The notes under the pieces are model-generated. The model did no database searches. It was not told the DNA's origin and was given only the letters and a program-made list of their open reading frames with translations. A DNA stretch of 64,000 bases from Elusimicrobia bacterium RIFOXYA2_FULL_47_53 (lineage in GTDB: Bacteria > Elusimicrobiota > Endomicrobiia > Endomicrobiales > XYA2-FULL-47-53): the NCBI GenBank assembly GCA_001800315.1, contig MGVE01000013.1:2238-66237 (forward strand), written 5' to 3'. Made by a program: the position numbers and the translations under genes. This document shows, one piece after another, positions 15,448 through 57,721 of this stretch. Positions within the stretch are counted from its first letter, which is position 1; every line of letters begins with the position of its first letter.

Positions 15448-15462
15448 ATGACCGCCTTAGCC

Positions 15463-18564: not shown

Positions 18565-18837
18565 ATTTGTTTAAGTTATAAGTTTTAAGTTGTAAGTCAT
18601 AAGTGAACGGCGAACTTCTGGGTCGTCATACCTTTTCCCAACAACTGAGATCCTTCTCTCCCTTCGGGAGATCAGGATGACGGCTTTTTTGGGGTCGTCA
18701 TACCAGCGGAAGCTGGTATCCAGTGGTTTTTCTGGATCCCAGACAAAACATTTCTGGGATGACAACGCTTTACGGACGCTGAGCAAGCTCAGCAGCTACA
18801 AAACCAACTAACTGCGAGATTCTGCGAAGCAGCAGTC
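18565..18837. repeat. Mosaic hairpin-repeat array A
   Basis: Chain of short stem-loops. Examples: ataccagc-ggaa-gctggtat (18700-18719), atcccaga-caaaacatt-tctgggat (18736-18760), tctccc-ttcg-ggaga, gctgagc-aa-gctcagc. The modules recur in arrays at 19.8-20.7, 25.8-26.4, 36.7-36.9 and 38.1-38.2 kb. Confidence 0.85.
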
Positions 18838-19833
18838 TCAGCGGGACGCAAGCTTCTTTTTTACTATCGCCATCGCCTTTTTGTTCTCGAATTTGCCGAG
18901 TTTGCTTAGCCCCTCTTTCCTTGACATAATTCCAAGACGGACCATGCCGGCTATCTCAAAGGCATATGGATGAAAACCATGGCGGTCCAGATGAACCTTG
19001 TTGGCAAAGGAATTGAGCAGACAGTTCGTGGAATTGGCGTCCATCTCGCCCGGCTCTCTCCAGCCAAGTTTTTTTATTTTAGAGATTATGCTTTTTTCAT
19101 TATAATCCGTGAAAGCGAAAGGGCTGACGGTGTACGGAAAGGCTTCCGGGGAGTCAAAAACTGAATCTTCAATAAAATACCTTGAGAGATCGGAGCCGGA
19201 GGCCTCTTCAAGCTGTTTTCTAAAAATACTCTGGGTTGATTTAAACAGGGAGGCGTTAATTTTCATAAGCGAAGACCTGACAGGCGCCTGCCCCGGAGTC
19301 CAGCCCCAGACCATGAGCGGAATTTTCTTTTCCAGGGCGGTCTTTAAAAATATGAATTTTGCCAGCCCTATGCAGGAAGTGCATATAGTGCTCGCCCGCT
19401 CCAGGGCCTTTAGCGGGAATATGGGTTCTTTAAGGCTTCTTTTTATCACATTTCTCATTACGCCGAAATCAGCCTTAATTATCAGGCTGTCAACACCAAG
19501 AGCCTCCGTGACAGTCCTGATATTCCTGAATGCCTCTTCGGATATAAAACCATTGTCAAAAGTAAGCGCGAGCGGATTTAGCTTAAAGTGTGTCTTAGCC
19601 AGGTAAAGGGCGAAAGTGCTGTCTTTGCCGCCGGAATACGCCACAGTGCAGTCGTAGGAGTACTTTCCCCTGATATTATCAAGCAGTTCCGTGAACTTGC
19701 CATATATTTCCTTTTTTTGGGCGGAGTAATCCTCAACCGCTTTTGAATCGGAGCAGTAGTTACACACGCCGTATTTATCAAAACTAATACCCGGGAAAGT
19801 TTCCGGCAGAACGCACCTTGAACATATTTTCAT
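18838..19833 (-). CDS. N-acetyl-sugar amidotransferase-like PP-loop ATPase (WbpG family-like)
   Basis: 331 aa. N-terminal Cys pairs (CSRCVLP...CNYC) and PP-loop VAYSGGKDSTFALYLA, as I recall for LPS/EPS N-acetyl sugar amidotransferases. Confidence 0.65.
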   Translation of the reverse strand: MKICSRCVLPETFPGISFDKYGVCNYCSDSKAVEDYSAQKKEIYGKFTELLDNIRGKYSYDCTVAYSGGKDSTFALYLAKTHFKLNPLALTFDNGFISEEAFRNIRTVTEALGVDSLIIKADFGVMRNVIKRSLKEPIFPLKALERASTICTSCIGLAKFIFLKTALEKKIPLMVWGWTPGQAPVRSSLMKINASLFKSTQSIFRKQLEEASGSDLSRYFIEDSVFDSPEAFPYTVSPFAFTDYNEKSIISKIKKLGWREPGEMDANSTNCLLNSFANKVHLDRHGFHPYAFEIAGMVRLGIMSRKEGLSKLGKFENKKAMAIVKKKLASR

Positions 19834-20741
19834 AAATGAACTCCATTTGTGTCGGTAAACTTCAGAAAGCAGTTCTGGGATGACAGCGCTTTACGGAACG
19901 CTGAGCAAGCTCAGCAGCTACAAAACCATTTAACTGCGAGATTGCTTCTCTCCCTTCGGGAGATCGCAATGACGGCCTTTTTTGGTCGTCATACACCTTT
20001 TCCCAACAACTGAGATCCTTCTCTCCCTTCGGGAGATCGCAATGACGGCCTTTTTTTATTTTGCGTCATCCCAGAGGTAGTAGTCTGGGATCCAGTCTTT
20101 AGTCTTACTTCTGGATTCCGGAGTGGCGGCCCAATGCTTTGAATAAAATCAGCCGGCCTCCCAGGCGAATGCGAAGCATTCTTCACCCGTCCAAAGACGG
20201 GAGATTTTTCGCCGCGGGACTGAACAATTCCGGAATGACAGCACGCTTCGCTCCAGGATGACGGCGCTTTACGGAACGCGCAGCAAGCTGCGCAGCTACA
20301 AAACCAACTAACTGCGAGATTGCTTCTCTCCCTGCGGGAGATCGCAATGACAACCTTTTTTGGTCGTCATACCCTTCCGAGCCGGTTATGAGCAAAAGTA
20401 TTTTTGGATGCCTTCAGTCTTGCCTGTTTGACCTGCCTACAAGGCAGGGAGTTTGCAAGACTGCCTAAAATACTTTTGCGAATGGCTCGCGGGGTCGCGT
20501 TTCTTTATTAACTTTCTTTGAGCGCTCAAAGAAAGTTAGAAAGGGGTGCAGGGGCAGCAGCCCCGCGACTTTGTTTCTTTCTGAAAGAACTTTAAAATCC
20601 TGGATCCCAGACAAAACATTTCTGGGATGACAGGCCTTGATGGATTCCAGACAGAAGCACTCTGGAATGACGGCGCTTTACGGACGCGCAGCAAGCTGCG
20701 CAGCTACAAAACTCTGACAGTGCAGAACCATGAACTGAAAA
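19834..20741. repeat. Mosaic hairpin-repeat array B (largest)
   Basis: About 900 bp, non-coding. It repeats the modules of array A and contains a 130-bp block (20090-20219) nearly identical to 26049-26177. It also holds two long composite hairpins at 20396-20565. Track ORFs inside it have low-complexity translations. Confidence 0.85.
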
Positions 20742-25839: not shown

Positions 25840-26369
25840 TATTCACCGCCTGTTTTCCCCTGATTGGGCCGATTATGGAATTTTAAGTTATAAGCTGTAA
25901 GTTGCAAGTTTTAAGCTGTAAGTTATAAGTGAACGGCCAACTTCTTTGTCGTCATTTCTTAGCAACAGAGATCCTTCTCTCCCTGCGGGAGATCGCAATG
26001 ACGGCGCGCTTTGTTTTTTGGTGTCATCCCCGAGGACTCAGTCGGGGATCCAGTCTTTAGTCTTACTTCTGGATTCCGGAGTGGCGGCCCAATGCTTTGA
26101 ATAAAACCAGCCGACCTCCCAGGCGAATGCGAAGCATTCTTCACCCGTCCAAAGACGGGAGATTTTTCGCCGCGGGACAGAGGCTTTCCGGAATGACGGC
26201 GCTTTCACGGAACGCGCAGCAAGCTGCGCAGCTACAAAACCATTTAACTGACGCGCCGTTTCGGGGCCACCATCAAACCCGGAGAGGCTTTACGCCACTG
26301 AGTCTTTGGCGGGCTGTCCCGCCACTGAACCGTTGGCGGGCTGACGCGCCGTTTCGTGTTTGTGTAACT
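25840..26369. repeat. Mosaic hairpin-repeat array C
   Basis: Same module set as arrays A and B. 26049-26177 is nearly identical to 20090-20219. The hairpin at 26026-26049 covaries with the one at 20068-20091. Confidence 0.85.
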
Positions 26370-36740: not shown

Positions 36741-36890
36741 GCCGTCATCCGAATGTTTCTGCATGGAATCCATCAAGGCCTATCATCCCAGAACCGTTCA
36801 GTCTGGGATCCAGAAAAATCTCTGGATACCAGCTTCCGCTGGTATGACGACACAGAAGCGCCGTTCACTTAAAGCTTACAACTTGAGTCA
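36741..36890. repeat. Hairpin-repeat array D (inverted orientation relative to array B)
   Basis: 36741-36815 aligns with the reverse complement of 20601-20675. It also carries the ataccagc/gctggtat hairpin and the cacttaaagcttacaactt module. Confidence 0.75.
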
Positions 36891-37837: not shown

Positions 37838-38094
37838 TTATTTCCTTCCAAAAGTCGTAAAATACCGGAACGCTGAAGGGGTGGAGCGGAGAGGAGTTAA
37901 TAGCGCGCGCCGCGCTTAGAAAGGAGACATCGTCAATATGGAAAAGTTTGGCTATAAAAGACAGGTAAGCGGCAAGAGAATACAATACTATTGAGAGGAG
38001 AGGATGCTCTGTCAGCCATTTGTTTGACGAAACATATATTGTTGACTTTTTCATTGGCAATCCAAAATTTGATTCAATTGAAAAACCCTTAAAA

Positions 38095-38215
38095 ATGCCC
38101 TGTCGTTGCGATCTCCCAAAGGGAAAGAAGCAATCGCGATGTTAAGACGAGATTGCTTCCCGCCACTGAACCTTCGGCGGACTGTCGCGTCGTTGCACTC
38201 CTCGCAAAGACGGGC
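38095..38215. repeat. Hairpin-repeat fragment E
   Basis: gtcgttgcgatctcccaaagggaaagaagcaatc is the inverted form of the gattgcttctctcccttcgggagatcgcaatgac module. cgccactgaaccttcggcgg matches 26311-26335. Confidence 0.6.
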
Positions 38216-46283: not shown

Positions 46284-47192
46284 CTATTGTCTGGGCCCGA
46301 TCTTTTTAAAAGCTTCCGCGATTTTTTTCTTCATATCAACGGCAGATCTATCTATTGCCTGACAGTAGGCGTTCACGCCTTTATCAGTAAGATGAATCGC
46401 GTTTTTCCGCAAAAGGCCGACCTTGTCGCCTTCAAAGCGTGTGCCCTGTCCTTTGGAAATAAGCGCGGTTTTAACCGCAAGCTCACCGTCCTTATTTACC
46501 ACAACCAAAGCCGAGCTGATATTAGGTATAGCCGGATCATCGCCGATCAACTTAAGCGACATCATGGGTTTCTTGTACCCCATATCTAATTCCACTATCG
46601 CAACCGCGTCAACCTTGAGATCCTTGCATAGCTTAATGAGCGCCTTGCGCATATTTTCTTTAGGATCTTTTGCATCGCCCGCGTAAACATGGGTTCCGCT
46701 TTGAGCCACGCTTTCAATGGGGATATGTATCATATTGGGGGCGACAAAGTAGTTTGCTGACGCCAAAACCGAACCAACTTTTACCAAAGCTCCGGCCGGA
46801 TTTTCTCTTGCCGTGAGGTTGACAAAATTTTTATAGACGCTGCTCTGCAGAACACTTGAAACCGGAAGCCATTCCCAATCACCAACATCGTTAAGCTGTT
46901 CGGAATAGGCCTTAACCGCGTAAGATACAATCATCTTTTGTTTTTCCGCGAAAGCATTGTCCAGCATATCCATCACACCCGTTGCCTTTGCGGTGGCCCG
47001 GCCCAATGTTTTTAGCGCTGCCGCGCCCTCAGACGCCTTTGGAGCTTTAACATCATAAAACTCCCTATTCATATAAACGCTTATCAGTGCGACCTTCTTA
47101 ACTTTATCAACCGCGGGCCTGATAAGTATACTGCCGCAGCCGCCCAAAAACACTAACGCACCAACCACTAATACTGGCACCAGCTTCTTCAT
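46284..47192 (-). CDS. Lipoprotein of unknown function
   Basis: 302 aa. Signal peptide with lipobox LGGC (MKKLVPVLVVGALVFLGGCGS). Confidence 0.55.
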   Translation of the reverse strand: MKKLVPVLVVGALVFLGGCGSILIRPAVDKVKKVALISVYMNREFYDVKAPKASEGAAALKTLGRATAKATGVMDMLDNAFAEKQKMIVSYAVKAYSEQLNDVGDWEWLPVSSVLQSSVYKNFVNLTARENPAGALVKVGSVLASANYFVAPNMIHIPIESVAQSGTHVYAGDAKDPKENMRKALIKLCKDLKVDAVAIVELDMGYKKPMMSLKLIGDDPAIPNISSALVVVNKDGELAVKTALISKGQGTRFEGDKVGLLRKNAIHLTDKGVNAYCQAIDRSAVDMKKKIAEAFKKIGPRQ

Positions 47193-47280
47193 AATTACGC
47201 TCCCTTTATTAAATTCCGTCCGGTGTCAGGATTGACTTAATGACACGCGGACGCATCCTGAAAATATTACTGAACATCAT

Positions 47281-47563
47281 TCAAAGCTATTGAATTTCAA
47301 ATATTGTTGTTTTGTTGAGAATATTTTTATCCTGCTCCATTTTAAAACTAAACTGAAATGCGCCGCACTATGTAGGCTTTATTTTGAAGGTTAAATTTTT
47401 CAGGAAACTGTTTTAAGGCAACAACTTTTCTATTTTTAACCAGCAGAAGGAATACGCCATCGTTTTCCTGGTTATATTTAGCAATTTTTTCTGCCAAACC
47501 CTGATCTATCTTGCTTGCCTGCTTGCATCAGGAATTGTTCACTTAACGAATAACCTTCCGTCT
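47281..47563 (-). pseudogene. Truncated, frameshifted copy of the 3' part of the 52725..53216 gene
   Basis: About 283 bp aligning with 52719-52997 at roughly 85-90% identity by eye, including the stop and the last codons (KTTIFEIQ*). A 2-nt deletion relative to the intact copy (ctgaaatgcgccgcactatg vs ctgattttgactttgcactaca) breaks the frame. Homology ends exactly at the stop codon of the flavodoxin-like gene. Confidence 0.7.
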
Positions 47564-48366
47564 TATTCTTTTTTAGCTAACTCTTTTTTCTTTTTATCTG
47601 ATATGTAATTTCCGATTATTTCCGCCATAAAACCTACAGCCCGCTTTGATAAACCCAACTTGACTGGATAATAATACGAGCTTTCAAACCAGCCATTTTC
47701 ATTAAAATATTTATAATCTTTCAATGTATTTTTAATATTTTTTTTGATTGATGTACGGACAAGCCTGAACAAGAACAACTTACCAAACGAGGGAACCATA
47801 TTTTTTGAATGATTCAAAACTCCATGAAATCTTTTTACGGCCTTTGAAATGTTGTTTTCAATTTTCTGCTCTTCCGACAAGGTTCTATCATTTGTCTCCG
47901 GCAAAAATGTAAGAACCAGTGCCTGCGCATTTGTAAAACCCCAAAAACTTGCGACTTCCTTAAGATATTTGGCTATATTATCTCCTCCGTAAACTGCCTG
48001 AGTTATTATTGCAAGGAATGACTTATTGAAAAATCTGGGACGATGAAATACAAATGCCAGCCTATCAAGGAAATTCTTCATTAGCGCAGGCACCTGCAGA
48101 GCATAATTTGGGACTGCAAAAATAACTCCATCCGCGTTATCCAATAAAGCGATCAGCAAATCCCTATCATCCTTATGCGGGCAATATTCCTCGCCTTTTG
48201 TAAGGCAGTTAAAACACCCGACACATGCATGCAAGTTTTTTTCCTTTAAAATTATGTATTCAAATTCAGTTTTTTCAAATTCATCAAGTTTCTTCTGTGT
48301 CCTTTCAAGAACCTTAAATGTTTCACTTTTTCTGGGACTTCCCATTATTGCGACTATCTTTTTCAT
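47563..48366 (-). CDS. Flavodoxin-fold NAD(P)H-dependent FMN reductase / iron-sulfur flavoprotein-like protein
   Basis: 267 aa. N-terminal KKIVAIMGSPRKSETF (flavodoxin-like P-loop for FMN), a CVGCFNCLTKGEEYCP Cys motif, and VIFAVPNYALQVP. Confidence 0.65.
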   Translation of the reverse strand: MKKIVAIMGSPRKSETFKVLERTQKKLDEFEKTEFEYIILKEKNLHACVGCFNCLTKGEEYCPHKDDRDLLIALLDNADGVIFAVPNYALQVPALMKNFLDRLAFVFHRPRFFNKSFLAIITQAVYGGDNIAKYLKEVASFWGFTNAQALVLTFLPETNDRTLSEEQKIENNISKAVKRFHGVLNHSKNMVPSFGKLFLFRLVRTSIKKNIKNTLKDYKYFNENGWFESSYYYPVKLGLSKRAVGFMAEIIGNYISDKKKKELAKKE

Positions 48367-48653
48367 GACCTATCCTTTTACACAATAAGCCCAGCGTCAC
48401 CTGCGAAAGAAAAAGTCAAGGCGACACCGTTTATTCAGCGGTACTTTAATGTAAATCTTTATAACCTTTCGGCTTAGTATTATGGTTTTCAAAAATACTT
48501 CTTTTTCATTTTAAACAATGGCACCAAATAGGCATGTTCATTTTCTCTAATAATTGACATTTTTTGGCCTTTATACTTTTCTTGGTTCGGATGTTCTATC
48601 ATTTCAAGGATATATCCCTTTTCAATGCATAGCATTACAATATGATAGATGTG

Positions 48654-49523
48654 TTAATTTATCTGTTCTTTATAATTTCTGACAACATATACAAAACCGG
48701 CCGCAATTATCGCGGCAAGGGCAAGAAATACCACAAGGTCCCGCAACAGGAAGGTCGGGTCATGATTTATATACATAACAATCCCCATTGCATTGACCGC
48801 GATTATCATAGTAAGAAAGAAACCATAAAACAAAAACTGCACCGAGTAGGTTGTCTTTGGCCTTGTCCAGAGCAAATATACGCTTATCAATCCCAGGGGA
48901 ATTGAAAAACCGAGATCAAAGATCCTGACAAGCCAGAAAGCTGCCGGCGCAAGCCCGTATCCGCGCGCGGTTCCGGTTGTAATTACCTCATTAACTTCCT
49001 TCAGCCACATTGAAGCAAATATAAGAAGAAAAACCGTAAACAGGGCGGAGTATACTATCAGGCTGTTTTTCTTAAAACATGTTTCCGCGTTTTTGGGAAA
49101 AATTGATAAAGAGTATAGAAGGATTATGAGCGAAGATATCAATACGAAGAGGAAGTGAAAAGTAAATGCTTCACTATTCCCCAAATATTGCGGCGAACTC
49201 CATTCCCATCCTATTGTATAGCTTAACGCGTAGTAAATAAGGAACAACGGGGTTGAAATCAGGAGATATCTTGAAATCGGTTTTTTCAGGTAAAGCGTAA
49301 TCCCGCCAAATATTAAAATGGGGCTTATCAGAAACATGTTCACGGCATCCTGCCCGATCAGCTGATTATTAATGATTTCAGCTGTTTTGTATTTGATAAG
49401 GCCAAAAAACAATGGGCCGTTTGCCGCCAGATAGACGAGAGTTACCCCAGCCGCGACCGAAATCAGCGACACGAATATTCTTTCAAAATTACTGCCGAAA
49501 ATATCAGCGTATTTATCGCTCAT
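48654..49523 (-). CDS. Polytopic membrane protein of unknown function
   Basis: 289 aa, about 8 hydrophobic helices, AT-rich codon usage. Confidence 0.55.
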   Translation of the reverse strand: MSDKYADIFGSNFERIFVSLISVAAGVTLVYLAANGPLFFGLIKYKTAEIINNQLIGQDAVNMFLISPILIFGGITLYLKKPISRYLLISTPLFLIYYALSYTIGWEWSSPQYLGNSEAFTFHFLFVLISSLIILLYSLSIFPKNAETCFKKNSLIVYSALFTVFLLIFASMWLKEVNEVITTGTARGYGLAPAAFWLVRIFDLGFSIPLGLISVYLLWTRPKTTYSVQFLFYGFFLTMIIAVNAMGIVMYINHDPTFLLRDLVVFLALAAIIAAGFVYVVRNYKEQIN

Positions 49524-49626
49524 CAGACATCCTTTTCAGTCTTTGATTGGACAACCCCGCAGCGGTGTCAGACTGCCTGACACCGGTACGATATTTCAGG
49601 ATCTCCTGGCTGGCCCCAGTGTTCGG

Positions 49627-49743
49627 TCACTTGTTTTCAGGCGAACTCTTATCGTCTTTCAAAATCCTGAAGAAACAATAAACCGCGGCGCCAAGTATCA
49701 GTGTCCATGAAACGGCGAAGAAAATCCAGCCCGCGAGTGTCAT
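49627..49743 (-). CDS. Small (38-aa) single-TM protein translationally coupled to the NSS transporter (MetS-like small subunit candidate)
   Basis: Own translation: MTLAGWIFFAVSWTLILGAAVYCFFRILKDDKSSPENK*. Its ATG overlaps the transporter stop codon (ccATGAca at 49740-49743). Below the 60-aa track cut-off. Confidence 0.45.
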   Translation of the reverse strand: MTLAGWIFFAVSWTLILGAAVYCFFRILKDDKSSPENK

Positions 49744-51317
49744 GGCTTTACCCCCTCGGCGGGAAGGCCCTTGTTTCTGTTCCTCCACGCCACATTCACG
49801 AAAACCCCAAGAAGCGCTATCATGCCGAACAGCATAAACCGCGTCATCAGGACATACGGCTTATTCGCGGCAGGAACATTCTTCATCAGTATGGTGGAGA
49901 TGCCGTCCTGATAGAACCAGCTTGCAAGAATAACAATGAGGAAAACCGGAGTGACATATTTGACAATGAATTTATATATCTTTGGTATCTTCATGGCGGC
50001 GCCGTGATGTATCTCCTCCCAGGCCTTGTCTATGCCGAAGACCCACGAGAAAAGCACGGTTTCTATCGTCGCGAAAAGCACCAGGCAAAAGGTTCCGCCC
50101 CAGAAATCCAGTTCATCCACAACCCCGTTTGCCAGCAGGAAGACAGCCGGCTGACAGAGGATGAAAGTAATGGTTCCAAACAGCAGAACCGCGTCTCTTT
50201 TAGACACACTGAACTCGTCTTCAAGAAACGAAACCGCCGGCTGAGCGAGGGAAATGGACGAAGTTATTCCCGCGAGGAAAAGCAGCGCGAACCACAGGAA
50301 GGAAAAAAACTGGCCCAGCCAGAGCTTTTCAAAAATCAGCGGCATAGTGACAAAGCCAAGATTAAAAGAACCGCTTTTGGCTATATTCATTATTTCACCC
50401 GGGCCAAAAAAAACGAAGGCCGCGGGGATGATTATGCTCCCGCCGAGTATCACTTCGGCAAACTCATTGGTGGCCGATGAAGCAACCCCTGAAAGCACGA
50501 CATCGTCCGATTTATCAAGGTAACTGGCGTAGGTGAGGATTACGCCAATGCCGACGCTTAAGGTGAAGAAAATCTGGCCGGCCGCGGCCAGCCACACCCT
50601 GGCGTCAAGAAGCCTGCCGAAATCAGGGTTCCATAAAAACCCAAGCCCGTTTAAAAGGTTCCATTCAGGTTTTTCCAAATCAGGCGTGCCGAGCGTCAAT
50701 ACCCTGGCGGCAATGATTATACCGAGCAGAAACAACACCGGAAGCGCTTTTGTGCAGAATTTCTCAATGCCTCCCTTCAACCCCTTGTAAATGACGGTTA
50801 TGTTTAAAATAAAGGTTATTATGAAGAAAAAATATGCAGTGCCTATTCCTGAGAAATGGCTGTTTGATTCTATACCCTGGTACCCCCTCAGGAACGCCTG
50901 CATCCCGTCGGTTCCGGCTACCTTTCCCAGGGCGCCGGTCAGCGAGAAAAACGCGTAGCCGAGCAGCCATGACTCTATATATGTATAGTAAATCAGTATG
51001 ACTATCGGCCCGAATATTCCCACAATGCCGAAGTATTTAATAAAACGGTTCTTGCTCCACATGGAATGAAAAATGCCCGGCGCGGTCCCATGCCCGAAAC
51101 CGCCTCCAAACCTCCCCAAAGTCCATTCTATCCACATAAGCGGCAAACCCATTAGAAGCAGAGCTACGAAATACGGAATCATGAATGCGCCGCCGCCGTT
51201 ATTGGCCGCCTGCACCGGAAACCTTAAGAAGTTGCCCAGCCCAACCGCACTGCCAGCCACTGCTAAAATGATACCTAACTTGGATCCCCACTTCTCGCGT
51301 TTTTTAGTTTCCGCCAT
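49740..51317 (-). CDS. Neurotransmitter:sodium symporter (NSS/SNF, LeuT-like) family transporter
   Basis: Preferred start is MAETKKREKWGS (51317), with AGGAG 6 nt upstream. Hallmark motif AVGLGNFLRFPVQAANNGGGAFMIPY. 11-12 TM. Confidence 0.85.
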   Translation of the reverse strand: MAETKKREKWGSKLGIILAVAGSAVGLGNFLRFPVQAANNGGGAFMIPYFVALLLMGLPLMWIEWTLGRFGGGFGHGTAPGIFHSMWSKNRFIKYFGIVGIFGPIVILIYYTYIESWLLGYAFFSLTGALGKVAGTDGMQAFLRGYQGIESNSHFSGIGTAYFFFIITFILNITVIYKGLKGGIEKFCTKALPVLFLLGIIIAARVLTLGTPDLEKPEWNLLNGLGFLWNPDFGRLLDARVWLAAAGQIFFTLSVGIGVILTYASYLDKSDDVVLSGVASSATNEFAEVILGGSIIIPAAFVFFGPGEIMNIAKSGSFNLGFVTMPLIFEKLWLGQFFSFLWFALLFLAGITSSISLAQPAVSFLEDEFSVSKRDAVLLFGTITFILCQPAVFLLANGVVDELDFWGGTFCLVLFATIETVLFSWVFGIDKAWEEIHHGAAMKIPKIYKFIVKYVTPVFLIVILASWFYQDGISTILMKNVPAANKPYVLMTRFMLFGMIALLGVFVNVAWRNRNKGLPAEGVKP

Positions 51318-51416
51318 TTCAAGCTCCTGATGTGCCAGTGGATTTGCTTTGTCAGAGAGCATTATATTTATTTTATCGCGCCGAAGCAAATAATCCAAAT
51401 GAATTTAGGGGGCTTG

Positions 51417-51657
51417 AACCCTGCGGGTTGTAGTCAAGGCTTGTCACTTGAGTTTTGGTTTCGGGGGTTATTCGCGTAGCATTTCATGCGAAACAAAAAG
51501 AAACTTTGCCGCATGGCATAGGGGGGAGCATTTGAATGCTCCCCCACTGGGATGGTAGTAGAGGGGGGTGCCGGCAACGCTACGAAAGGCAAAGTTTCTT
51601 AAAGTTGCAGCTGAAAGATTAATCTCGCAGTAGAGAATAATCCCCGAAACCAAAACT
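51417..51657. repeat. Repeat X, copy 1 (19-nt core + long foldback hairpin)
   Basis: Core aaccctgcgggttgtagtc lies at 51417-51435. The outer stem agttttggtttcgggggttattc (51451-51473) pairs with gagaataatccccgaaaccaaaact (ending 51657). The inner stem is gaaactttgcc/ggcaaagtttc. Homologous to 56426-56622. Confidence 0.8.
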
Positions 51658-51768
51658 CCCATCATGGGACGATGTTCGAACTTATTTCAAGACAATCATT
51701 TGCAGACAACACATTGAATTTGCAATTAATAAGAAGTATTCCTAATCAGCAATTATCTGAGTTGCACA

Positions 51769-51999
51769 TCAAGCGGCATGATGCATGACATAATAATCAA
51801 TTATTTTCCTTATCATTGTCTGATAATGCCCATGTGATTTTTTGGCATATTTCTTGAAAAAATCAACGCTGTTTTGGCTAAGTGTAATCGTTACCTTAAC
51901 ATTCTTTTCCTTGAACGCAAAATGCTCCGGAGCCGGCAAAAAGTCCTTCACTTCTTTAAAGTTCATTGGCTCATTTGTGTAGCTTATTTTTTTCTTCAT
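51769..51999 (-). CDS. brnA: BrnA-type antitoxin (RHH/CopG-like)
   Basis: Preferred start is MKKKISYTNEP (51999), with GGGAGG 8 nt upstream. Pattern ...LPAPEHFAFKEKNVKVTITLSQNSVDFFKKYAKK... Lies directly downstream of brnT and overlaps it. Confidence 0.7.
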   Translation of the reverse strand: MKKKISYTNEPMNFKEVKDFLPAPEHFAFKEKNVKVTITLSQNSVDFFKKYAKKSHGHYQTMIRKIIDYYVMHHAA

Positions 52000-52261
52000 A
52001 ATATGACCTCCCTTTTCTCCAATAACCGGCTCCAATTATCCTTATTATATTGCCCCTATAAGTGAAACGGACCGTTATGATGCCTTTGTCTACCTTCCCA
52101 ATGCAATAGTATCTCTTTTCATCTTTACTATGCTCTAAGTCCTCAAGAATAACGCGATGAGGATCGGCAAACGCAAATTGCGCGTCAAAGAAAGATATAC
52201 CATGCTTGCTAAGATTTACTTCGTCTTTCTTTGGATCCCAATCGAATACCGTCTTATTCAT
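51971..52261 (-). CDS. brnT: BrnT-family (DUF497) toxin
   Basis: 96 aa. FDWDPKKDEVNLSKHGISFFDAQFAFADPHRVILEDLEHSKDEKRYYCIG...IRIIGAGYW matches the BrnT pattern. Confidence 0.8.
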   Translation of the reverse strand: MNKTVFDWDPKKDEVNLSKHGISFFDAQFAFADPHRVILEDLEHSKDEKRYYCIGKVDKGIITVRFTYRGNIIRIIGAGYWRKGRSYYEEKNKLHK

Positions 52262-52331
52262 ATGGGTATATTACCATACCTTTATACATATGTCAAGAGT
52301 ATTCCAAATGAAATATCCCTATAATATCATC

Positions 52332-52530
52332 AAAACCCTGGTAGCAGGATTCCCTCTCGCCCATCCTCTTGGGGGCTTCGGGGCGGGGCGCTCACCGACT
52401 CCCCTTCGGGCGAGGGCTCGTGCCGACACTCTCCCGCGCCTGTCTTATCCTGACCTATTCGTCAGGATAGGCGCCCCACTGCTACCACGAGCTCGTTATT
52501 CCTCGCTCAGCAACCCTGCGGGTTGTAGTC
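52332..52530. repeat. Repeat Y, copy 1
   Basis: About 200 bp, highly similar to 56235-56444. It starts with a degenerate copy of the tRNA-Asn 3' end (aaaaccctggtagcagga) and ends with the 19-nt core. Internal hairpin tatcctgac-ctattc-gtcaggata. Confidence 0.8.
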
Positions 52531-52724
52531 TCGCACCCTAACAACAAAATAGTCCGAAAGAACCCCTTTAGGGGGTTTCTTCGGACTATACTCCCATTAT
52601 AAAACGATGTTCGAACCTATTTTAAGAATACTATACGATAAAACACCTTAATAATACAATGTATCTGCAATGTTTGAATATATATTTCACACAACCGGAA
52701 AATAATAATGAAGATCTTTCAAAG

Positions 52725-53216
52725 CTATTGAATTTCAAATATAGTTGTTTTATTGAGATTATTTTTATCCTGTTCCACCTTAAAACTAAACTGATTTTGA
52801 CTTTGCACTACATAGGCTTTATTATGAAGGTTAAATTTTCCAGGGAACTGTTTTAAGGCAACAACTTTTCTATTTTTAACCAACAGAAGGAATACACCAT
52901 CGTTTTCCTGGTTATATTTAGCAATTGATTTTGCCAAACCCTGATCTACCTTGCCTGTTTGCATCAGAAATTGTTCACTTAATGAATAACCTTCTGTCAA
53001 AATCAAATATTGAATATTAAATCTATTTGGTATCGTAATTGTAGTGCCCGTTCTTACTGCGGCAAGATTTTGCACAATTTCGTTAGCATAGTCTCTATAT
53101 TTTGTATTTGAATTATGCTCTATTTTCCTTAGCATGAATACAATAAGGATACATGCTATTGAAAATATAATGAGCCAGAAAATACTTTGGACGATATGTT
53201 TGATAATAATTTTCAT
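52725..53216 (-). CDS. Membrane-anchored hypothetical protein (163 aa)
   Basis: N-terminal TM (IVQSIFWLIIFSIACILIVFML). AT-rich. Its 3' part is duplicated as a pseudogene at 47281-47563. Confidence 0.55.
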   Translation of the reverse strand: MKIIIKHIVQSIFWLIIFSIACILIVFMLRKIEHNSNTKYRDYANEIVQNLAAVRTGTTITIPNRFNIQYLILTEGYSLSEQFLMQTGKVDQGLAKSIAKYNQENDGVFLLLVKNRKVVALKQFPGKFNLHNKAYVVQSQNQFSFKVEQDKNNLNKTTIFEIQ

Positions 53217-53447
53217 AAAAATCCGTTTCTCTTTGATAAAATATTATTTATTTAAGCTTTTTAAGTTTATCCAACTTACCCATTATTTCATCTGAAATTC
53301 TATCCTCATCAGTTATGTCATTATTTTTGAGATCTTGCCATTGAATATATCTGACACATGAATCAAAAAAAAGGCTTACCGTAATTACAATGGCAAGCGA
53401 AATTCTACATTGAATATTTTGAATCCTTAACTACTAAATGCTTTAAC

Positions 53448-53900
53448 CTAAGGTATTTTAAATGTCACGATATCGCTTATTCTCTTATATCCATCACCAA
53501 AATAACAACTCATATATGCTTTATACTTACCAGGGCTTGGAAACCTAAACTGAGTACTAGTTGCAGCATTCCTAGTGAGTCTATGAGCGTCAGTTTTTGC
53601 ATCAACAATAACCCAGCTAATACTATGATTTATTATATCCTCATCTAAGACATCTCTATTCAGGGTTCCTTCATCATCTACCCAAAGACGAATAAATGGC
53701 GCTGGATCATGCAACTTTTCAAGTATTTTCCTTTCTATGCCAACTTGCTTAACTTTTTGCCATTTAACTTTTATCTCTATTTCCGTCACTCTATTTTCAA
53801 GCTTCTGTATTTGAGTATCAAATGGTTTATTACCCTCATAGCATTTGACAGATAATTGGCTCAATATTATAACAGCAATAACCAAGAATGTCTTCTTCAT
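53448..53900 (-). CDS. Secreted coiled-coil protein with C-terminal beta-sandwich-like domain
   Basis: 150 aa. Signal peptide, heptad region IQKLENRVTEIEIKVKWQKV, and a C-terminus ...GKYKAYMSCYFGDGYKRISDIVTFKIP related to the C-terminus of the next gene's product. Confidence 0.55.
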   Translation of the reverse strand: MKKTFLVIAVIILSQLSVKCYEGNKPFDTQIQKLENRVTEIEIKVKWQKVKQVGIERKILEKLHDPAPFIRLWVDDEGTLNRDVLDEDIINHSISWVIVDAKTDAHRLTRNAATSTQFRFPSPGKYKAYMSCYFGDGYKRISDIVTFKIP

Positions 53901-53907
53901 AGAGAAC

Positions 53908-54621
53908 CTATTTAATCTTATAACTCACAACATTACTAATTACTTTATAACCACCATCGATAAACTGTTCCAAATATACAGTGTAAACACCTTTTTTATC
54001 ATTTTTGTACTTAAATGATTTCGCTACTCCACCGGATTCGTAAACGGTATTCCCATTGTAGATAATAACCAACATGGCATTACTTCCTGTATCATTTTTG
54101 ATATCACCCATATGAATAGTGTTGTCTTTATCAACCCATATTATGACTGAAGTCTGGGTTGGCTTGTAATTTTCCTTCAGCCTCTTCCTTCGATCATCCT
54201 TTTCTCTATTTGGTTTTTCGATTTCGGCTTGGTGAATTTCAAGACCATATAATTGTTTTTCTAATTCTGACACCTTGTCTTCCAATACCCTGATTCTCGA
54301 TGCGGATTGAGATTGCTCCTGCTTATCTTCAAGAGTGACAATATTTACAATGATATCCTTTTCCCGACCCGACAACCTACTATCACTAAAGTTCTTGTCA
54401 GGTTTATACCAAACCTGGCTAGAAAAATACTGATTTAAATCACTATTATCAAACATCTTTCCATGCCTTGCATAAATTTCGTTTTTCAAAAGACGAAGTT
54501 CTTCGATACTTTTTTCTCCAATGTTGTCATATTTCGCAAGCCAATCCTCAGCATATAGTCCTTGCAAGACGAATAAACTTGCAGCGAAAAGATACCACAG
54601 CACAATGTTTTTTTTATTCAT
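53908..54621 (-). CDS. Secreted YARHG-domain protein with coiled coil and C-terminal beta-sandwich-like domain
   Basis: 237 aa. Signal peptide. ELRLLKNEIYARHGKMFDNSDLNQYFSSQVWYKP (YARHG motif). RIRVLEDKVSELEKQLYGLE coil. C-terminus ...GVYTVYLEQFIDGGYKVISNVVSYKIK. Confidence 0.6.
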   Translation of the reverse strand: MNKKNIVLWYLFAASLFVLQGLYAEDWLAKYDNIGEKSIEELRLLKNEIYARHGKMFDNSDLNQYFSSQVWYKPDKNFSDSRLSGREKDIIVNIVTLEDKQEQSQSASRIRVLEDKVSELEKQLYGLEIHQAEIEKPNREKDDRRKRLKENYKPTQTSVIIWVDKDNTIHMGDIKNDTGSNAMLVIIYNGNTVYESGGVAKSFKYKNDKKGVYTVYLEQFIDGGYKVISNVVSYKIK

Positions 54622-54642
54622 ACATTCCTACCCATAAATACT

Positions 54643-56055
54643 CTAATCTGCAAAACATAAACCTTCAAAATAGTCCCCGGGATATTCCCTTAAATAGTTT
54701 ATACTAAACCAGCCTTTTTCACCATTAATATTTTCAACAAGGCACCATTCTTTATCATCTGTCATAGTAATTGTAGCCTTGTCTCCAGGCATTAGCACCA
54801 AACTAATTCGAGAGTCATATGGCGTTTTTTGAAGCTTAAGCTCTTTTAATATAGCGACCTTTGTATTCATCTCAATAACACCTTGCTGAATTGGTTCAAC
54901 CTTATGATCTTGATTTAGCCTATTTCTTTGTTTATAGAACCATGTATGCAGTATATTTCCTCTTTCATGGGAATCAAAAGTACCCGAACCATCAATAACT
55001 ACTCCGTATCTGAGTAAACCACCAACTGTGCCCATGGGAACAAATTCACTATCATTGTAATAATAGAAACTTGTGCTGTAATCATCACTGGGCCCCTCAT
55101 CATCCATTGCTACTTCTATATATTTATCACTTTTATCTATATCAACAAAGCCCCAAGTGGAACCAGTCCCAACCACCGGGAGATAGGCATTATTAACAAC
55201 AAGGATGTCACCCTTAGCCTCGATAATATAAACATTTTCTTCTTTTCCATCACCATTTAAATCTACACTCTTCATTTTATATAAGCCATCAAATACTTCT
55301 GCAGTGCTCATTCCTATACCCCGAATAATATGAAACTTATCGATTGCAAACCATCCCTTCAAGCCATCCGTGTTTTCTATCATACACCATTCAATCTTAT
55401 CCGTTTTAATAATTTTTGCTTTATCTCCTGTCTTAAAAGTACAAGCTATGCGAGCATCTATAGGCGAAACTTGAAGCTGAATCGGTTTTTTCAACACCAC
55501 ATCAATGTCAACATCATATTGGTTACTATTTGTCGTAATTTCTTCAAGTAAGTGTTCTTTTGTAAGCCTATACATCGGAGTAAACATCTCGCCAGATAAT
55601 AAATTCGCCCTAATAGCTCCCTTTACTATCCCTGTACCATCAGCCACAATCTTATACGATTTTTCAATAGCCCCCATATCGACTATTATATTTCTATCGA
55701 ATGACAACAATTTTACTGTATTATCATAGCTTTTACCATAACAATATGTCTCTATTTCCACAAATTTGTCATTTTTATCAATATCTATTATTTTGTAGAA
55801 ACTGTAAGGGTTCCATACGATTTTTGCAGCTTTTTTGTCATTTATATATAGAAATGTAACATTCCGGTTTTCCTCCTGCTCATAACTGACTCTTATTTTT
55901 TCATTCCTACCATCCCCATCCAAATCAATTTCTTTCTTGAATTTATCAGTAAATTGAGTGGGATCAAATTGATTGACTTCAGCGCCAGCGTTCACATACA
56001 TCAATATAGACAATAATATTACAAAAACGACATTCTTTCCTATTCCAAATCTCAT
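54643..56055 (-). CDS. Secreted protein with an internal tandem duplication: DxDxDG Ca-binding-like loops plus SH3b-like domains
   Basis: 470 aa with a signal peptide. Two roughly 215-aa repeats, each with DLDGDGRNE / DLNGDGKEE, IDIDKNDKFVEIE / VDIDKSDKYIEVA and GDKAKIIKTDKIEWCMIENTDGLKGWF / GDKATITMTDDKEWCLVENINGEKGWF. Confidence 0.6.
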   Translation of the reverse strand: MRFGIGKNVVFVILLSILMYVNAGAEVNQFDPTQFTDKFKKEIDLDGDGRNEKIRVSYEQEENRNVTFLYINDKKAAKIVWNPYSFYKIIDIDKNDKFVEIETYCYGKSYDNTVKLLSFDRNIIVDMGAIEKSYKIVADGTGIVKGAIRANLLSGEMFTPMYRLTKEHLLEEITTNSNQYDVDIDVVLKKPIQLQVSPIDARIACTFKTGDKAKIIKTDKIEWCMIENTDGLKGWFAIDKFHIIRGIGMSTAEVFDGLYKMKSVDLNGDGKEENVYIIEAKGDILVVNNAYLPVVGTGSTWGFVDIDKSDKYIEVAMDDEGPSDDYSTSFYYYNDSEFVPMGTVGGLLRYGVVIDGSGTFDSHERGNILHTWFYKQRNRLNQDHKVEPIQQGVIEMNTKVAILKELKLQKTPYDSRISLVLMPGDKATITMTDDKEWCLVENINGEKGWFSINYLREYPGDYFEGLCFAD

Positions 56056-56234
56056 TGCAAACCCTTTTTTTGCTATATCTTATTACCAGCTCGTTCTGTT
56101 CGAGAATTGTATCAGTAAAATAGCACGAAATCAAGTTCAATAAATATTACTATATCCACATATAAATTTCCCAATAAATACAAAAAAAAGAAAACCACAC
56201 ATATTCAATCGTTTTATCGACGGACTTAAAAGTC

Positions 56235-56444
56235 AAAACTCTGGTGGTAGGAGTTTCTCCCCTCACCCATCCTCTTGGGGGCTTCGGGGCGGGGCGCTCA
56301 CCGACTCCCCTTCGGTCCAGGGCTCGTGCCGACACTCTCCCGCGCCTGTCTTATCCTGACCTATTCGTCAGGATAGGCGCCCCACTGCTATCACGAGCTC
56401 GTTATTCCTCGCTCAGCAGCCCTGCAACCCTGCGGGTTGTAGTC
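56235..56444. repeat. Repeat Y, copy 2
   Basis: Starts with aaaactctggtggtagga (an exact copy of the tRNA-Asn 3' end, 56239-56252). Ends with the 19-nt core (56426-56444), which runs directly into repeat X copy 2. Confidence 0.8.
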
Positions 56445-56622
56445 AAATCTTGTCACTTGAGTTTTGGTTTCGGGGGTTATTCGCGTAACGAGAGATTAAG
56501 ATTTCAAGCGAAACAAAAAGAAACTTTGCCGCGGCGTAGCAACGCTACGAAAGGCAAAGTTTCTTAAAGTTGCAGCTGAAAGATTAATCTCGCAGTAGAG
56601 AATAATCCCCGAAACCAAAACT
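56426..56622. repeat. Repeat X, copy 2
   Basis: Same outer stems as copy 1 (56460-56482 / 56598-56622). The apical region is shorter, and the terminal hairpin is cgtagc-aa-gctacg. Confidence 0.8.
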
Positions 56623-56960
56623 CTGGTGGTAGGATGCCCGCCGTTGGCGGGGACTCGGTCACAAGTAAATTTGCTGACGCAAATTTCTCGCGGGCACCCC
56701 TTCCATCACATATCCCAGCGGGACACCGCTCCGCGGTTTCCCCTACCCACTTCTCGCGGTTTGAGCCTTTCGCTTCGCTCAAACTCAAACATCGCTCCGC
56801 CTTTCGAATCCTACCGCCTTTCAATTGCATTATTTTAGTTAGCAATTGAAAGCCCGGGTTCTCACGAACTCGAACCCGCGCATTATCTCGCCTCCAGTTC
56901 CCAAATGCCATTCAGGCATTTAACTCTCGGCATGCGCCCAAGCAGTTGGCTTGCTCCACC

Positions 56961-57011
56961 AGAGAAATAAATATCCCAAGTTCACTCCGATTAGGAGTTA
57001 ACTTGGGATAT
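56961..57011 (-). terminator. Intrinsic terminator downstream of tRNA-Asn
   Basis: 12-bp stem atatcccaagtt/aacttgggatat (56971-56982 / 57000-57011) with an inner actcc/ggagt stem, followed on the minus strand by TTATTTCT. Confidence 0.55.
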
Positions 57012-57012
57012 A

Positions 57013-57084
57013 CTCTGGTGGTAGGATTCGAACCTACAACCCTCCCGTTAACAGCGGGATGCTCCACCGTTGAGCTACACCAGA
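57013..57084 (-). tRNA. tRNA-Asn (anticodon GUU)
   Basis: Hand-folded cloverleaf on the minus strand. Acceptor TCTGGTG/CACCAGA, D arm GCTC-AACGGTG-GAGC, anticodon arm TCCCG-CTGTTAA-CGGGA, variable loop GGGTT, T arm GTAGG-TTCGAAT-CCTAC, discriminator G. CCA is not encoded. Confidence 0.95.
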
Positions 57085-57241
57085 ATGTTTGCAACGATAT
57101 TTATTTTAACCGCTCAACGGTGGAGTAAACTCCACCTGCCGTTGAGCCGGGCGCTCACTTCTCGCGCCCGCCGCTGTCTCGCGCTCGTTATCCCTCGCGC
57201 TGCGGCTACCAGAATGTTTGCAACGATATTTATTTTAACCG
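57074..57241. repeat. About 37-39-bp direct repeat flanking a 92-bp hairpin insert just upstream of tRNA-Asn
   Basis: gctacaccagaatgtttgcaacgatatttattttaaccg (57074-57112, includes the tRNA 5' end) is repeated as gctaccagaatgtttgcaacgatatttattttaaccg (57205-57241). The intervening 92 bp contains the hairpin ctcaacgg-tggagtaaactccacctg-ccgttgag. Confidence 0.7.
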
Positions 57242-57249
57242 GCACGGAA

Positions 57250-57516
57250 TTACCTGAAAATCAGAGGATAATTCTCTAAATTTGAAAGTGACTTGATACT
57301 CAAATCAATATCTAATTTAGGCCAGTACAAATGCTGTGAATGAACAACCTTAACTTCAGCTATATCGCTTACCCTTGCATCTTTAAACCACGGGAAATCC
57401 TCGTATCTCAAAAAATACTCATGGCCGGCGCATAAAAGCCACAACCCCCGCGGAGTAATATCCAGGACTTCAGCGCCTGAAATGTTTTTTCCAGCTACTC
57501 CTGATTTCACTTTCAT
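57250..57516 (-). CDS. DUF2442-family small protein
   Basis: 88 aa. ...VLDITPRGLWLLCAGHEYFLRYEDFPWFKDARVSDIAEVKVV...LYWPKLDIDLS fits the DUF2442 pattern. The exact start is uncertain (47-nt overlap with the upstream gene). Confidence 0.6.
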   Translation of the reverse strand: MKVKSGVAGKNISGAEVLDITPRGLWLLCAGHEYFLRYEDFPWFKDARVSDIAEVKVVHSQHLYWPKLDIDLSIKSLSNLENYPLIFR

Positions 57517-57721
57517 GCTCCTTGACTATTTCCTGAATTTTCAAAAGCTCCCGCGCAGACAGCCCGTAATTCTCGGCCAGGGAAACGATCGGATCAATCC
57601 AAAATTTCGCCTCGCCTTTTGAGGACTGCACATGAACATGCAGCCTTTTCTCTTCACGCGAAAAGAAAAAGAAACGATATTCACCTTTTCGGAACACGGT
57701 TGGGCTCATAAAAGTTTTCAA
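57470..57721 (-). CDS. DUF4160-family small protein
   Basis: 83 aa. YRFFFFSREEKRLHVHVQSSKGEAKFWIDPIVSLAENYGLSARELLKIQEIV fits the DUF4160 pattern. Confidence 0.65.
   Translation of the reverse strand: MKTFMSPTVFRKGEYRFFFFSREEKRLHVHVQSSKGEAKFWIDPIVSLAENYGLSARELLKIQEIVKEHESEIRSSWKKHFRR

Follow-up and report, generated by a model that had tools for sequence, protein, structure and literature searches.

A 64-kb stretch of the genome of Elusimicrobia bacterium RIFOXYA2_FULL_47_53, analysed as a whole and referred to below as the window, contains two non-coding repeats, X and Y, that are arranged around a 19-nt core in two different orders: Y-core-X at 56.4 kb, and core-X...brnA brnT...Y-core at 51.4-52.5 kb. 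The question raised by this locus is whether the toxin-antitoxin (TA) operon brnTA in the second arrangement is the payload of a mobile element of roughly 1.1 kb that recombines at the core, the first arrangement being its circular or tandem-junction form, as a first-pass annotation had proposed, or is an old resident of the locus with repeats on either side of it. The answer put forward here, tentatively and with somewhat less than even confidence, is that the region is an array of gene islets linked to a tRNA-Asn gene, that its spacers carry one complete and two partial composite repeats derived from attachment-site arms, and that brnTA is ancestral.

Under this proposal the 6-kb stretch between an SNF transporter gene and tRNA-Asn would be a tRNA-linked variable region of gene islets, ordered on the minus strand as tRNA-Asn, a variable low-GC island and the brnTA operon, and its spacers would carry three same-orientation copies of one non-coding, strongly structured composite, Y-core-foldback. 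The complete copy would be Y2-core-X2; the partial copy upstream of brnTA would be Y1-core-hp, with the hairpin hp in the place of X, and the partial copy downstream would be core-X1, without Y, each copy abutting a motif that resembles a tRNA 3' end (D7a, D7b or the start of the repeat Z). The repeats are tied to tRNA-Asn through Y, which ends in a copy of the last 18-35 nt of that gene, and they are probably the attachment-site and arm remnants of small integrase-less elements that accreted in tandem at tRNA-Asn-like sites through a recombinase acting in trans, in the manner of cis-mobilizable elements (CIMEs). With one partial copy on each side of brnTA, both in the same orientation, the sequence reads core-X...brnTA...Y-core, which mimics a circular permutation of Y-core-X.

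Anatomy of the locus

Nearly all genes of the region lie on the minus strand. In that direction the order begins with porA, porB, a DUF4160/DUF2442 gene pair and tRNA-Asn(GTT), followed by GC-rich, non-coding repeats over approximately 750 nt (first a hairpin region at the tRNA end, then Z, X2, core and Y2); then come a four-gene low-GC island, D7b, hp, a core and Y1, and lastly brnT, brnA, D7a, X1, a core and the SNF transporter gene, the nearest homologues of which are found at 76-77% amino acid identity in metagenome-assembled genomes (MAGs) of Endomicrobiales. The coordinates are collected in Table 1.

Table 1. Positions of the genes, repeats and motifs of the tRNA-Asn-linked region in the window
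Feature	Coordinates	Strand	Description
Core copy 1	51417..51435	+	hairpin gaaccc-tgc-gggttg with G-G mismatch; the SNF transporter gene starts ~55 nt downstream
X1	51436..51658		long foldback, arms GAGTTTTGGTTTCGGGGGTTATTC / GAATAATCCCCGAAACCAAAACTC; extra ~55-nt apical hairpin compared with X2
D7a	51655..51692	-	38-nt motif with palindrome GTTCGAAC; minus strand reads TCTTGAAATAAGTTCGAACATCGTCCCATGATGGGAGT
brnA antitoxin, 76 aa	51769..51999	-	PF14384, E 2.5e-6, 28.2 bits (cut-off 26.1)
brnT toxin, 96 aa	51971..52261	-	PF04365, E 1e-22, 80.7 bits (cut-off 34.5)
brnT promoter TTGACA-17-TAATAT	52268..52296	-	conserved upstream of brnT in L013, L015 and L031
Y1	52330..52511	+	GC-rich structured repeat; right end (~52470-52511) is the family hairpin, loop CTCGTTATTCCTCG
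Core copy 2	52512..52530	+	found by 19-mer search
18-nt linker and hairpin hp	52531..52589		hp at 52549-52589, 18-nt arms; fills the X position of the other two copies
D7b	52590..52627	-	second GTTCGAAC motif, sharing 84% identity with D7a; its orthologue in L015 lies upstream of brnT
Low-GC island	52725..56055	-	GC 0.25-0.38; ORF163, ORF150, YARHG-domain ORF237, SH3-domain ORF470
Y2	56233..56425	+	left end CTCTGGTGGTAGGA identical to the tRNA-Asn 3' end, inverted reading
Core copy 3	56426..56444	+	Y2/X2 seam
X2	56445..56623		foldback
19-nt CAAAACTCTGGTGGTAGGA	56616..56634	+	perfect direct repeat of 56234-56252
Z	56616..56830		GC-rich; inverted termini like the tRNA-Asn end, GGTGGTAGGAT ... 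TTCGAATCCTACCGCC
tRNA-Asn (GTT)	57012..57085	-	intact gene at one end of the array; anchor of the variable region

The core, AACCCTGCGGGTTGTAGTC, occurs in exactly three copies, starting at 51417, 52512 and 56426 as the first-pass annotation had it, with no further copy at up to three mismatches and none expected by chance. Within its 19 nt is a 15-nt palindrome, CAAC-CCTGCGG-GTTG, with a 3-nt centre, and all copies are in direct orientation. The mismatch described earlier for the hairpin of the first copy is real: the nucleotide that precedes the 19-mer is G at copy 1 and C at copies 2 and 3.

Self-comparison of the sequence bears out that X and Y each occur twice and are permuted around the core. 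X measures approximately 200-240 nt (51417-51658 matches 56426-56623, core included); the right 85 nt of its two copies are 100% identical, and X1 differs from X2 in having an additional hairpin in the apical loop and in lacking 11 nt. The RNA fold of X2 has a z score of -11.6, that of a very strong foldback. Y measures approximately 200 nt (52330-52530 matches 56233-56444 at 91-94% identity, core included), Y2 having 8 extra nt, AGCCCTGC, directly before the core, and its fold is less striking than that of X (z from -3.3 to -4.2). On the minus strand X always follows sequence ending in GAGT, which is the tRNA-like end of Z in the case of X2 and D7a in the case of X1. The 3' part of D7a and the start of X1 together make up a terminator-like hairpin of brnTA, and X and hp appear now to double as terminator-like hairpins.

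Homology breaks off exactly at the outer core edges, 51417 and 52530, and the earlier statement that the sequence outside the two left-hand cores is unrelated stands at those edges; it does not extend to D7, one copy of which (D7a) lies inside the unit beside X1 and the other (D7b, 84% identical) 60 nt outside the right core. The perfect identity of the core, at 19 of 19 positions, is unexceptional, since no more than 1-2 differences are found in the flanking 40-60 nt of X and Y. Cores also delimit the low-GC island, a unit of 3.7 kb that has Y on the 5' side and a hairpin on the 3' side, and the island and brnTA units have in common the layout core-Y-genes-D7-hairpin-core. Outside the two cores, the flanking sequences form an imperfect inverted repeat, TTAGGGGGC / GCACCCTAA, with complementarity at 8 of 9 positions. 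A strong hairpin at the empty site reconstructed from them (...TTAGGGGGCTTG-core-TCGCACCC...) was considered and rejected, the z score of its fold being only -1.75.

D7, of which approximately 34 nt are shared with a related species, reads AAATAGGTTCGAACrTCGT...GGGAGT in the sense of brnT, and the octamer GTTCGAAC occurs only twice in the 64 kb, both times in a D7 copy. Motifs containing this octamer are found at the boundaries of gene units in two species, at 51655-51692 and 52590-52627 in the window and at 1884, 4866, 5592 and 7272 in L015, a contig of a related species. A terminator-like hairpin usually follows a motif of the D7 type, TAGGTTCGAA is common to it and the T-arm of tRNA-Asn, and its candidate roles are those of an old attachment (att) remnant, a terminator module or a protein site.

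The four proteins encoded by the low-GC island are secreted or of unknown kind. The 3' half of ORF163, together with 36 nt downstream of it (52689-52998), has an 87%-identical counterpart at 47251-47562, a pseudogene fragment that lies 5 kb away between two unrelated genes. The DUF4160/DUF2442 genes, which overlap at 57250-57721 between porB and tRNA-Asn as a putative TA-like module, are missing in the related species described below, in which a small YgaP-like membrane protein takes their place.

brnTA in the population and in related species

The operon encodes a BrnT/BrnA type II toxin-antitoxin system, as both domains are present in a two-gene operon whose genes overlap (51971-51999), and these are, as described earlier, the only genes between the two left-hand cores. 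The ancestry of the operon can be read from a related species, represented by contigs L014-L017, in which BrnT is 73% identical at the amino acid level and the gene order is porA, porB, a small gene, tRNA-Asn, a different three-gene island (DUF6973 and others) in the slot between tRNA-Asn and brnTA, and then brnT and brnA. Nucleotide identity between this species and the window is 74% for brnTA (over 520 nt), 72% for the por genes and 91% for the tRNA. Both species have the brnT promoter and a D7 motif on each side of brnTA, and no X, Y or core is present at the syntenic locus of L014-L017.

The divergence of brnTA is the same as that of the por genes and hence shows the pattern of vertical co-inheritance, and, because the orthologous operon stands in the same synteny in the absence of X, Y and core, the TA pair predates the repeats at the locus. 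To judge from this comparison, brnTA looks like an old resident of the array and not like the cargo of a recently arrived element, and it would already have been in place, with a D7 motif on each side and with tRNA-Asn and a replaceable island upstream, when X, Y and the core arose in the lineage of the window. The role of mobile payload that the first-pass annotation had assigned to it is contradicted by the orthologue, which provides the chief evidence against that role.

Within the population the arrangement is fixed. Assemblies produced independently, from different samples and with different pipelines (ENA, JGI and NCBI MAGs; contigs of up to 157 kb), are 100% identical over the interval 47000-57101. 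The exact BrnT protein is indexed in 47 assembly blocks, and in the contigs read, 24 for BrnT and 23 for ORF163, the arrangement is identical, with no empty site, other context or second location. Two observations that might have been taken as evidence on this point were set aside: the synteny of the SNF transporter gene is uninformative with regard to an empty site, relatives having a PALP-SNF operon, and an apparent strain insertion of +430 nt in L007 corresponds to scaffold Ns.

Annotation extended approximately 18 kb beyond the window, and the genome survey for core, X and Y covered approximately 84 kb. No integrase, transposase or resolvase Pfam family was found on the called genes of the window and the 18 kb beyond it, which confirms the earlier statement that no recombinase is encoded in the 64 kb. 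Exact scans with the 19-mer returned three matches in genome contigs, one in metagenomes and none in viral sequences, none of them with X or Y flanks; these are chance matches in unrelated sequence, and L002 and L004 carry one and the same stretch. A core accompanied by X or Y was found nowhere else in the public collections of genomes, metagenomes and viruses; viral scans with 20-24-mers of X and Y gave no match, and neither did a BLAST search of phage and plasmid sequences with Y2-core-X2-Z. A protein search with the spurious open reading frame (ORF) across Y2-core-X2 returned only the corresponding ORF of Y1, and Rfam, at gathering and at permissive thresholds, recognized only tRNA, leaving X, Y and Z unmatched.

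Homologues of the operon in other lineages have surroundings of their own. In L013 (BrnT 81% identical), direct repeats of approximately 210 nt with approximately 80% identity (449-664 and 1236-1441) bracket brnTA, and each ends in a GTTCGAAC-like motif and a terminator hairpin. In L031 (BrnT 71% identical), the region 2800-8300 contains same-orientation TA pairs (HEPN/NTase twice, HI1420-type, HicB and ParE/Phd), with repeated spacers of 70-230 nt, the ends of which, ATTTAAC ... GTTACAT, bear a loose resemblance to attC core sites, and an rve fragment and a Y1_Tnp gene lie near this array.

tRNA-derived ends and the Y-family hairpin

The tRNA-Asn gene, which likewise heads the syntenic array in L014/L015, is followed directly downstream by an inverted copy of its own 3' end, and further direct and inverted copies of the tRNA end are present in Z and in the tRNA-downstream region. 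The gene ends ...CCAGAGT, with an 18-bp hairpin at once after it, and D7b is likewise followed by an 18-bp hairpin, hp. A larger inverted repeat at 56952-57020 (CCACCAGAG ... CTCTGGTGG) has the tRNA-Asn 3' end and its terminator hairpin as one of its arms. The complete copy, Y2-core-X2, lies 390 nt downstream of the gene. On the minus strand the terminal 35 nt or so of Y2 align to the 3' 35 nt of tRNA-Asn with a score of 36, which was reached in 0 of 2000 shuffles; the left end of Y1 (52331-52349) is a more degenerate inverted copy of the same tRNA end (10 of 2000 shuffles).

The 19-nt repeat CAAAACTCTGGTGGTAGGA, of which 15 nt correspond to the tRNA-Asn 3' end in inverted reading, has its two copies 382 nt apart, flanking the Y2-core-X2 unit. 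The start of Z is the same 13 nt as in this tRNA-like repeat, and the end of Z is T-loop/acceptor-like sequence of opposite sense. As Y2-core-X2 is flanked by a perfect 19-nt repeat of its own, a circle made from it has two seams, either of which is a possible recombination site: a Y-core-X circle can give the layout of the brnTA locus if it is opened at the core, and the 56.4-kb copy if it is opened at the tRNA-like 19-mer. If the latter seam is the att site, then the junction of Y with the tRNA end would be of the attR type and that of the tRNA end with X of the attL type, and brnTA, as a consequence, would lie between two elements and not inside one. We infer an integrase-driven origin of the repeats from this anatomy, and either seam, the core or the tRNA-like 19-mer, may have been the site of crossover. 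In the brnTA unit itself the exact direct repeat is the core, and the tRNA-end-like motifs are degenerate (the end of Y1, D7a and D7b). The possibility that the core is a palindromised fragment of tRNA-Asn was tried and rejected, because its 9-nt match, GGGTTGTAG, is not significant (equalled in 224 and 488 of 2000 shuffles).

The right ends of Y1 and Y2 contain a hairpin with a conserved loop, CTCGTTATYCCTCG, which occurs at three other sites, all of them at tRNA genes: in a 95-nt GC-rich insert upstream of tRNA-Asn (57113-57207) that is flanked by a perfect 34-nt direct repeat including the first six nt of the gene; downstream of tRNA-Ser(GGA), in an insert that is present in L025, which has an N-gap there, and not in L026; and upstream of tRNA-Ser(CGA), adjoining duplicated copies of the 5' end of that tRNA. 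Comparison of the five members shows changes on both sides in 4 of the 10 stem pairs, with 90% of cells paired; the observed covariation values were reached in 2-16 of 500 column shuffles, and they collapse in slid controls. In 163 kb a covariance model built from the family recovered the five training members and two weak relatives (L027 15440, E 0.02; L027 20662, E 0.15), with no further strong member, and the hairpin is unmatched in Rfam and in phage or plasmid collections.

In the two members that lie upstream of a tRNA, the 3' side of the hairpin abuts a reverse complement of the 5' end of that same tRNA; in the tRNA-Ser(GGA) member it abuts the repeated sequence that follows the tRNA; and only in Y1 and Y2 does it abut the core. 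Y-type elements are tRNA-associated and mostly independent of the core, which makes them a poor fit to a dedicated X/Y/core element and a better one to tRNA-directed insertion or duplication. The hairpin may in fact be the more novel item at this locus: it covaries, has a conserved loop, stands at tRNA-Asn and two tRNA-Ser genes, adjoins a duplicated fragment of the tRNA 5' end in two cases and duplicated tRNA-flanking sequence in a third, and appears to vary in copy number between assemblies, so it could mark an undescribed process of tRNA-directed insertion or duplication.

The sites of these additional members have structures of their own. Upstream of tRNA-Asn, a 129-nt unit (57079-57241) consists of the 34-nt direct repeat, made up of the first 6 nt of the gene and 28 nt upstream of it, and the 95-nt insert, which holds a palindromised copy of the tRNA D-arm in addition to the Y-family hairpin; the insert is present once in the window and twice in tandem in L009 and L025, and L007 has N-gaps in its place. 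Past the right end of the window, an insertion of approximately 287 nt after tRNA-Ser(GGA) is found in L025 only (L025 6893-7500 compared with L026 7565-7900) and comprises a Y-family element that starts with the tRNA's CCCTCCCT and a second tRNA-downstream segment of approximately 210 nt, its exact structure being uncertain because it contains an N-gap. The first 18 nt of tRNA-Ser(CGA), GGAGAGGTGGCCGAGTGG, recur upstream of that gene as two pseudo-copies (L025 285-590 / L026 957-1262), one of which runs into an opposite-strand Y-family hairpin, after which tRNA-like sequence resumes.

Competing readings and comparison with known systems

The locus is not the only part of the genome in which repeats are stacked: short hairpin modules of several families make up long intergenic mosaics within the window and in its flanks (in the window at 18570-18825, 19866-20715, 25898-26250, 36741-36884 and 38091-38145, and in L027 at 14550-15600 and 19290-20050), with modules such as GGGATGACGGCGCTTTACGG... 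and GTCGTCATACCAGCGGAAGCTGGTATCCAG in variable order and number. Their order is also permuted from one locus to another, 18621-18724 followed by 18745-18821 corresponding, for instance, to 19866-19943 followed by 19984-20096. Permuted module order is therefore not unusual in this genome, which lessens the evidential weight of the X/Y permutation and lends itself to an explanation in which X, the core hairpin and Y are independent modules of the repetitive extragenic palindrome (REP) or bacterial interspersed mosaic element (BIME) type that have been scattered and stacked in spacers, the two orders being a by-product of shuffling with no connection to integration or to brnTA. The occurrence of Y-family hairpins without the core and the variable microhomology (4, 8 and 19 nt) by which module junctions overlap are in keeping with this explanation, which is nevertheless unlikely, because in approximately 84 kb the core, X and the long Y are confined to the tRNA-Asn region and always occur together, Y has a significant copy of the tRNA-Asn 3' end, and the other members of the Y family stand at tRNA genes with duplicated tRNA fragments, which points to a tRNA-directed and not a random process. 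That the repeats have misled assembly into a mis-join or a chimeric contig is scarcely credible given the identity of 47000-57101 in independent assemblies and the length of the contigs that support it, even though some assemblies have N-gaps or a varying copy number in the nearby 129-nt tandem unit and at tRNA-Ser.

The element originally proposed, a non-autonomous unit core-X-brnA-brnT-Y-core of approximately 1.1 kb that recombines at the 19-nt site by means of a recombinase encoded elsewhere, would have Y-core-X at 56.4 kb as its attP-like or tandem-junction form and the island, core-hp...Y2-core, as a second cassette. The geometry of the locus fits this proposal: there are three exact 19-mers, homology ends at their outer edges, the arms are inside the unit as in the attL and attR of an element with a long attP, and the 15-nt palindrome would make a plausible recombinase core. 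It is rendered distinctly unlikely by the greater age of brnTA, whose orthologue has diverged as its housekeeping neighbours have, by the lack of an empty site or of any other core with X or Y in the contigs, collections and predicted proteins searched, by the second seam that the perfect direct repeat gives the junction copy, by the duplication of D7 across the supposed boundary, by the presence of hp and not X in the island cassette, by a core that is no better conserved than its surroundings, and by a Y family that is mostly core-free. Several observations nevertheless weigh against the tRNA-linked array, some of which favour the core-recombining element directly. The array makes it a coincidence that the two partial copies are broken exactly at the core edges, a break that a single crossover at the core would explain more economically; the parallel layout of the island and brnTA units looks like that of core-bounded cassettes; and the complementarity of the outer flanks lends weak support to a once-contiguous empty site. 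The core has no significant similarity to the tRNA, the likeness of D7 to the tRNA T-arm extends over only 10 nt, and no integrase specific for tRNA-Asn was seen in the approximately 84 kb surveyed. Residence is also not fixed among the homologues in other lineages, as brnTA stands in another context between direct repeats in L013 and in L031 belongs to a TA-cassette array whose repeated spacers are lineage-specific, and brnTA modules with flanking recombination sites are known from Acinetobacter plasmids (PMC7885321). Over long times, then, the operon does move and is habitually bracketed by repeats, and the evidence for its ancestral residence is not absolute.

A more far-reaching possibility, which must be considered very unlikely, is an integron-like but IntI-independent cassette system in Elusimicrobia whose units are exchanged as circles by a recombinase in trans. 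In such a system brnTA and the four-gene island would be cassettes downstream of tRNA-Asn, bounded by the 19-nt hairpin core, with Y as the arm at the 5' side and X or a hairpin as the arm at the 3' side, and the small tRNA-linked Y-family hairpin elements would be its minimal members; if true, this would be a gene-cassette system with a recombinase in trans outside the integron paradigm. If the conservative account is true, the locus is an ordinary variable region of an uncultured Elusimicrobia lineage, linked to a tRNA gene and containing junction repeats that have decayed, and it carries the caution that partial same-orientation copies astride a resident gene can look like a circular permutation.

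Among known systems, REPs and BIMEs resemble the locus in consisting of short hairpin modules in variable order in intergenic spacers, and the core hairpin is followed by GTAG, as in REP heads; they differ in that the core, X and the long Y have few copies, all at a single locus, in that the ends here are tRNA-derived, and in that a RAYT transposase was not seen. Both ends have the core hairpin, in direct orientation, as would be sought in an IS200/IS605 element or a palindrome-associated element (PATE); there is no Y1_Tnp or TnpB gene in the window, no further copies were found in approximately 84 kb or in public collections, and the junction copy has one hairpin where a joint of right and left ends would have two, so that the IS200/IS605 reading appears unlikely. 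X is a foldback, as in a miniature inverted-repeat transposable element (MITE), with two copies only and no flanking target-site duplication found, and that assignment was rejected.

The resemblance to integron cassettes, including clusters of attC sites lacking integron integrases (CALINs), lies in same-orientation units that are each followed by a structured imperfect palindrome and in a circular form that is a permutation of the linear one. TA cassettes are frequent in chromosomal integron arrays, and the attC consensus consists of R'' (RYYYAAC) and R' (GTTRRRY) bracketing an imperfect palindrome of approximately 57-141 nt. By inspection no such pair is present in the core, X or D7, X is larger than attC at 200-240 nt, and no IntI (no match of the Phage_integrase type) was found in the window and the approximately 18 kb beyond it, for which reasons the attC reading was rejected; brnTA, moreover, has its own promoter and an orthologue without the repeats. 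The pdif modules of Acinetobacter, which are acted on by Xer recombinases and include a brnTA module (PMC7885321; PMC6449649), are similar in being small, recombinase-less and placed between short recombination-type sites, and in that their mobility is inferred from comparative genomics only. Their sites are 28 bp long (11-6-11), in inverted orientation and on plasmids, whereas here 19-nt direct repeats with long structured arms are found on a chromosome. The assignment to Xer modules (IMEX/pdif) was rejected on account of the direct orientation of the core and of the GC skew, which is negative throughout the region and so has no switch that would mark dif or the terminus.

The closest analogue appears to be provided by the CIMEs (Pavlovic 2004 and Bellanger 2011, as cited in PMC5704250) and by the tandem accretion of islands at tRNA and tmRNA genes. 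The accretion of decayed, integrase-less elements at att sites in tandem has been described (PMC5704250), and the Dehalococcoides ssrA islands (PMC3146451) are a related case of islands at a tRNA or tmRNA gene. The units considered here differ from CIMEs in being tiny (0.38, 1.1 and 3.9 kb), in having junction repeats that are long, GC-rich and strongly folded, in a 19-nt core seam that is not demonstrably tRNA-derived, and in that no cognate integrase or parent integrative and conjugative or mobilizable element (ICE/IME) was seen. They have in common with CIMEs the head-to-tail arrangement of integrase-less units downstream of an intact tRNA gene, with no integrase or transfer genes inside the unit; direct repeats between units, some of which copy the tRNA 3' end, as do those around the 382-nt Y2-core-X2 unit; one variable island that differs between related species; and a TA pair, which is compatible with a putative stabilising role.

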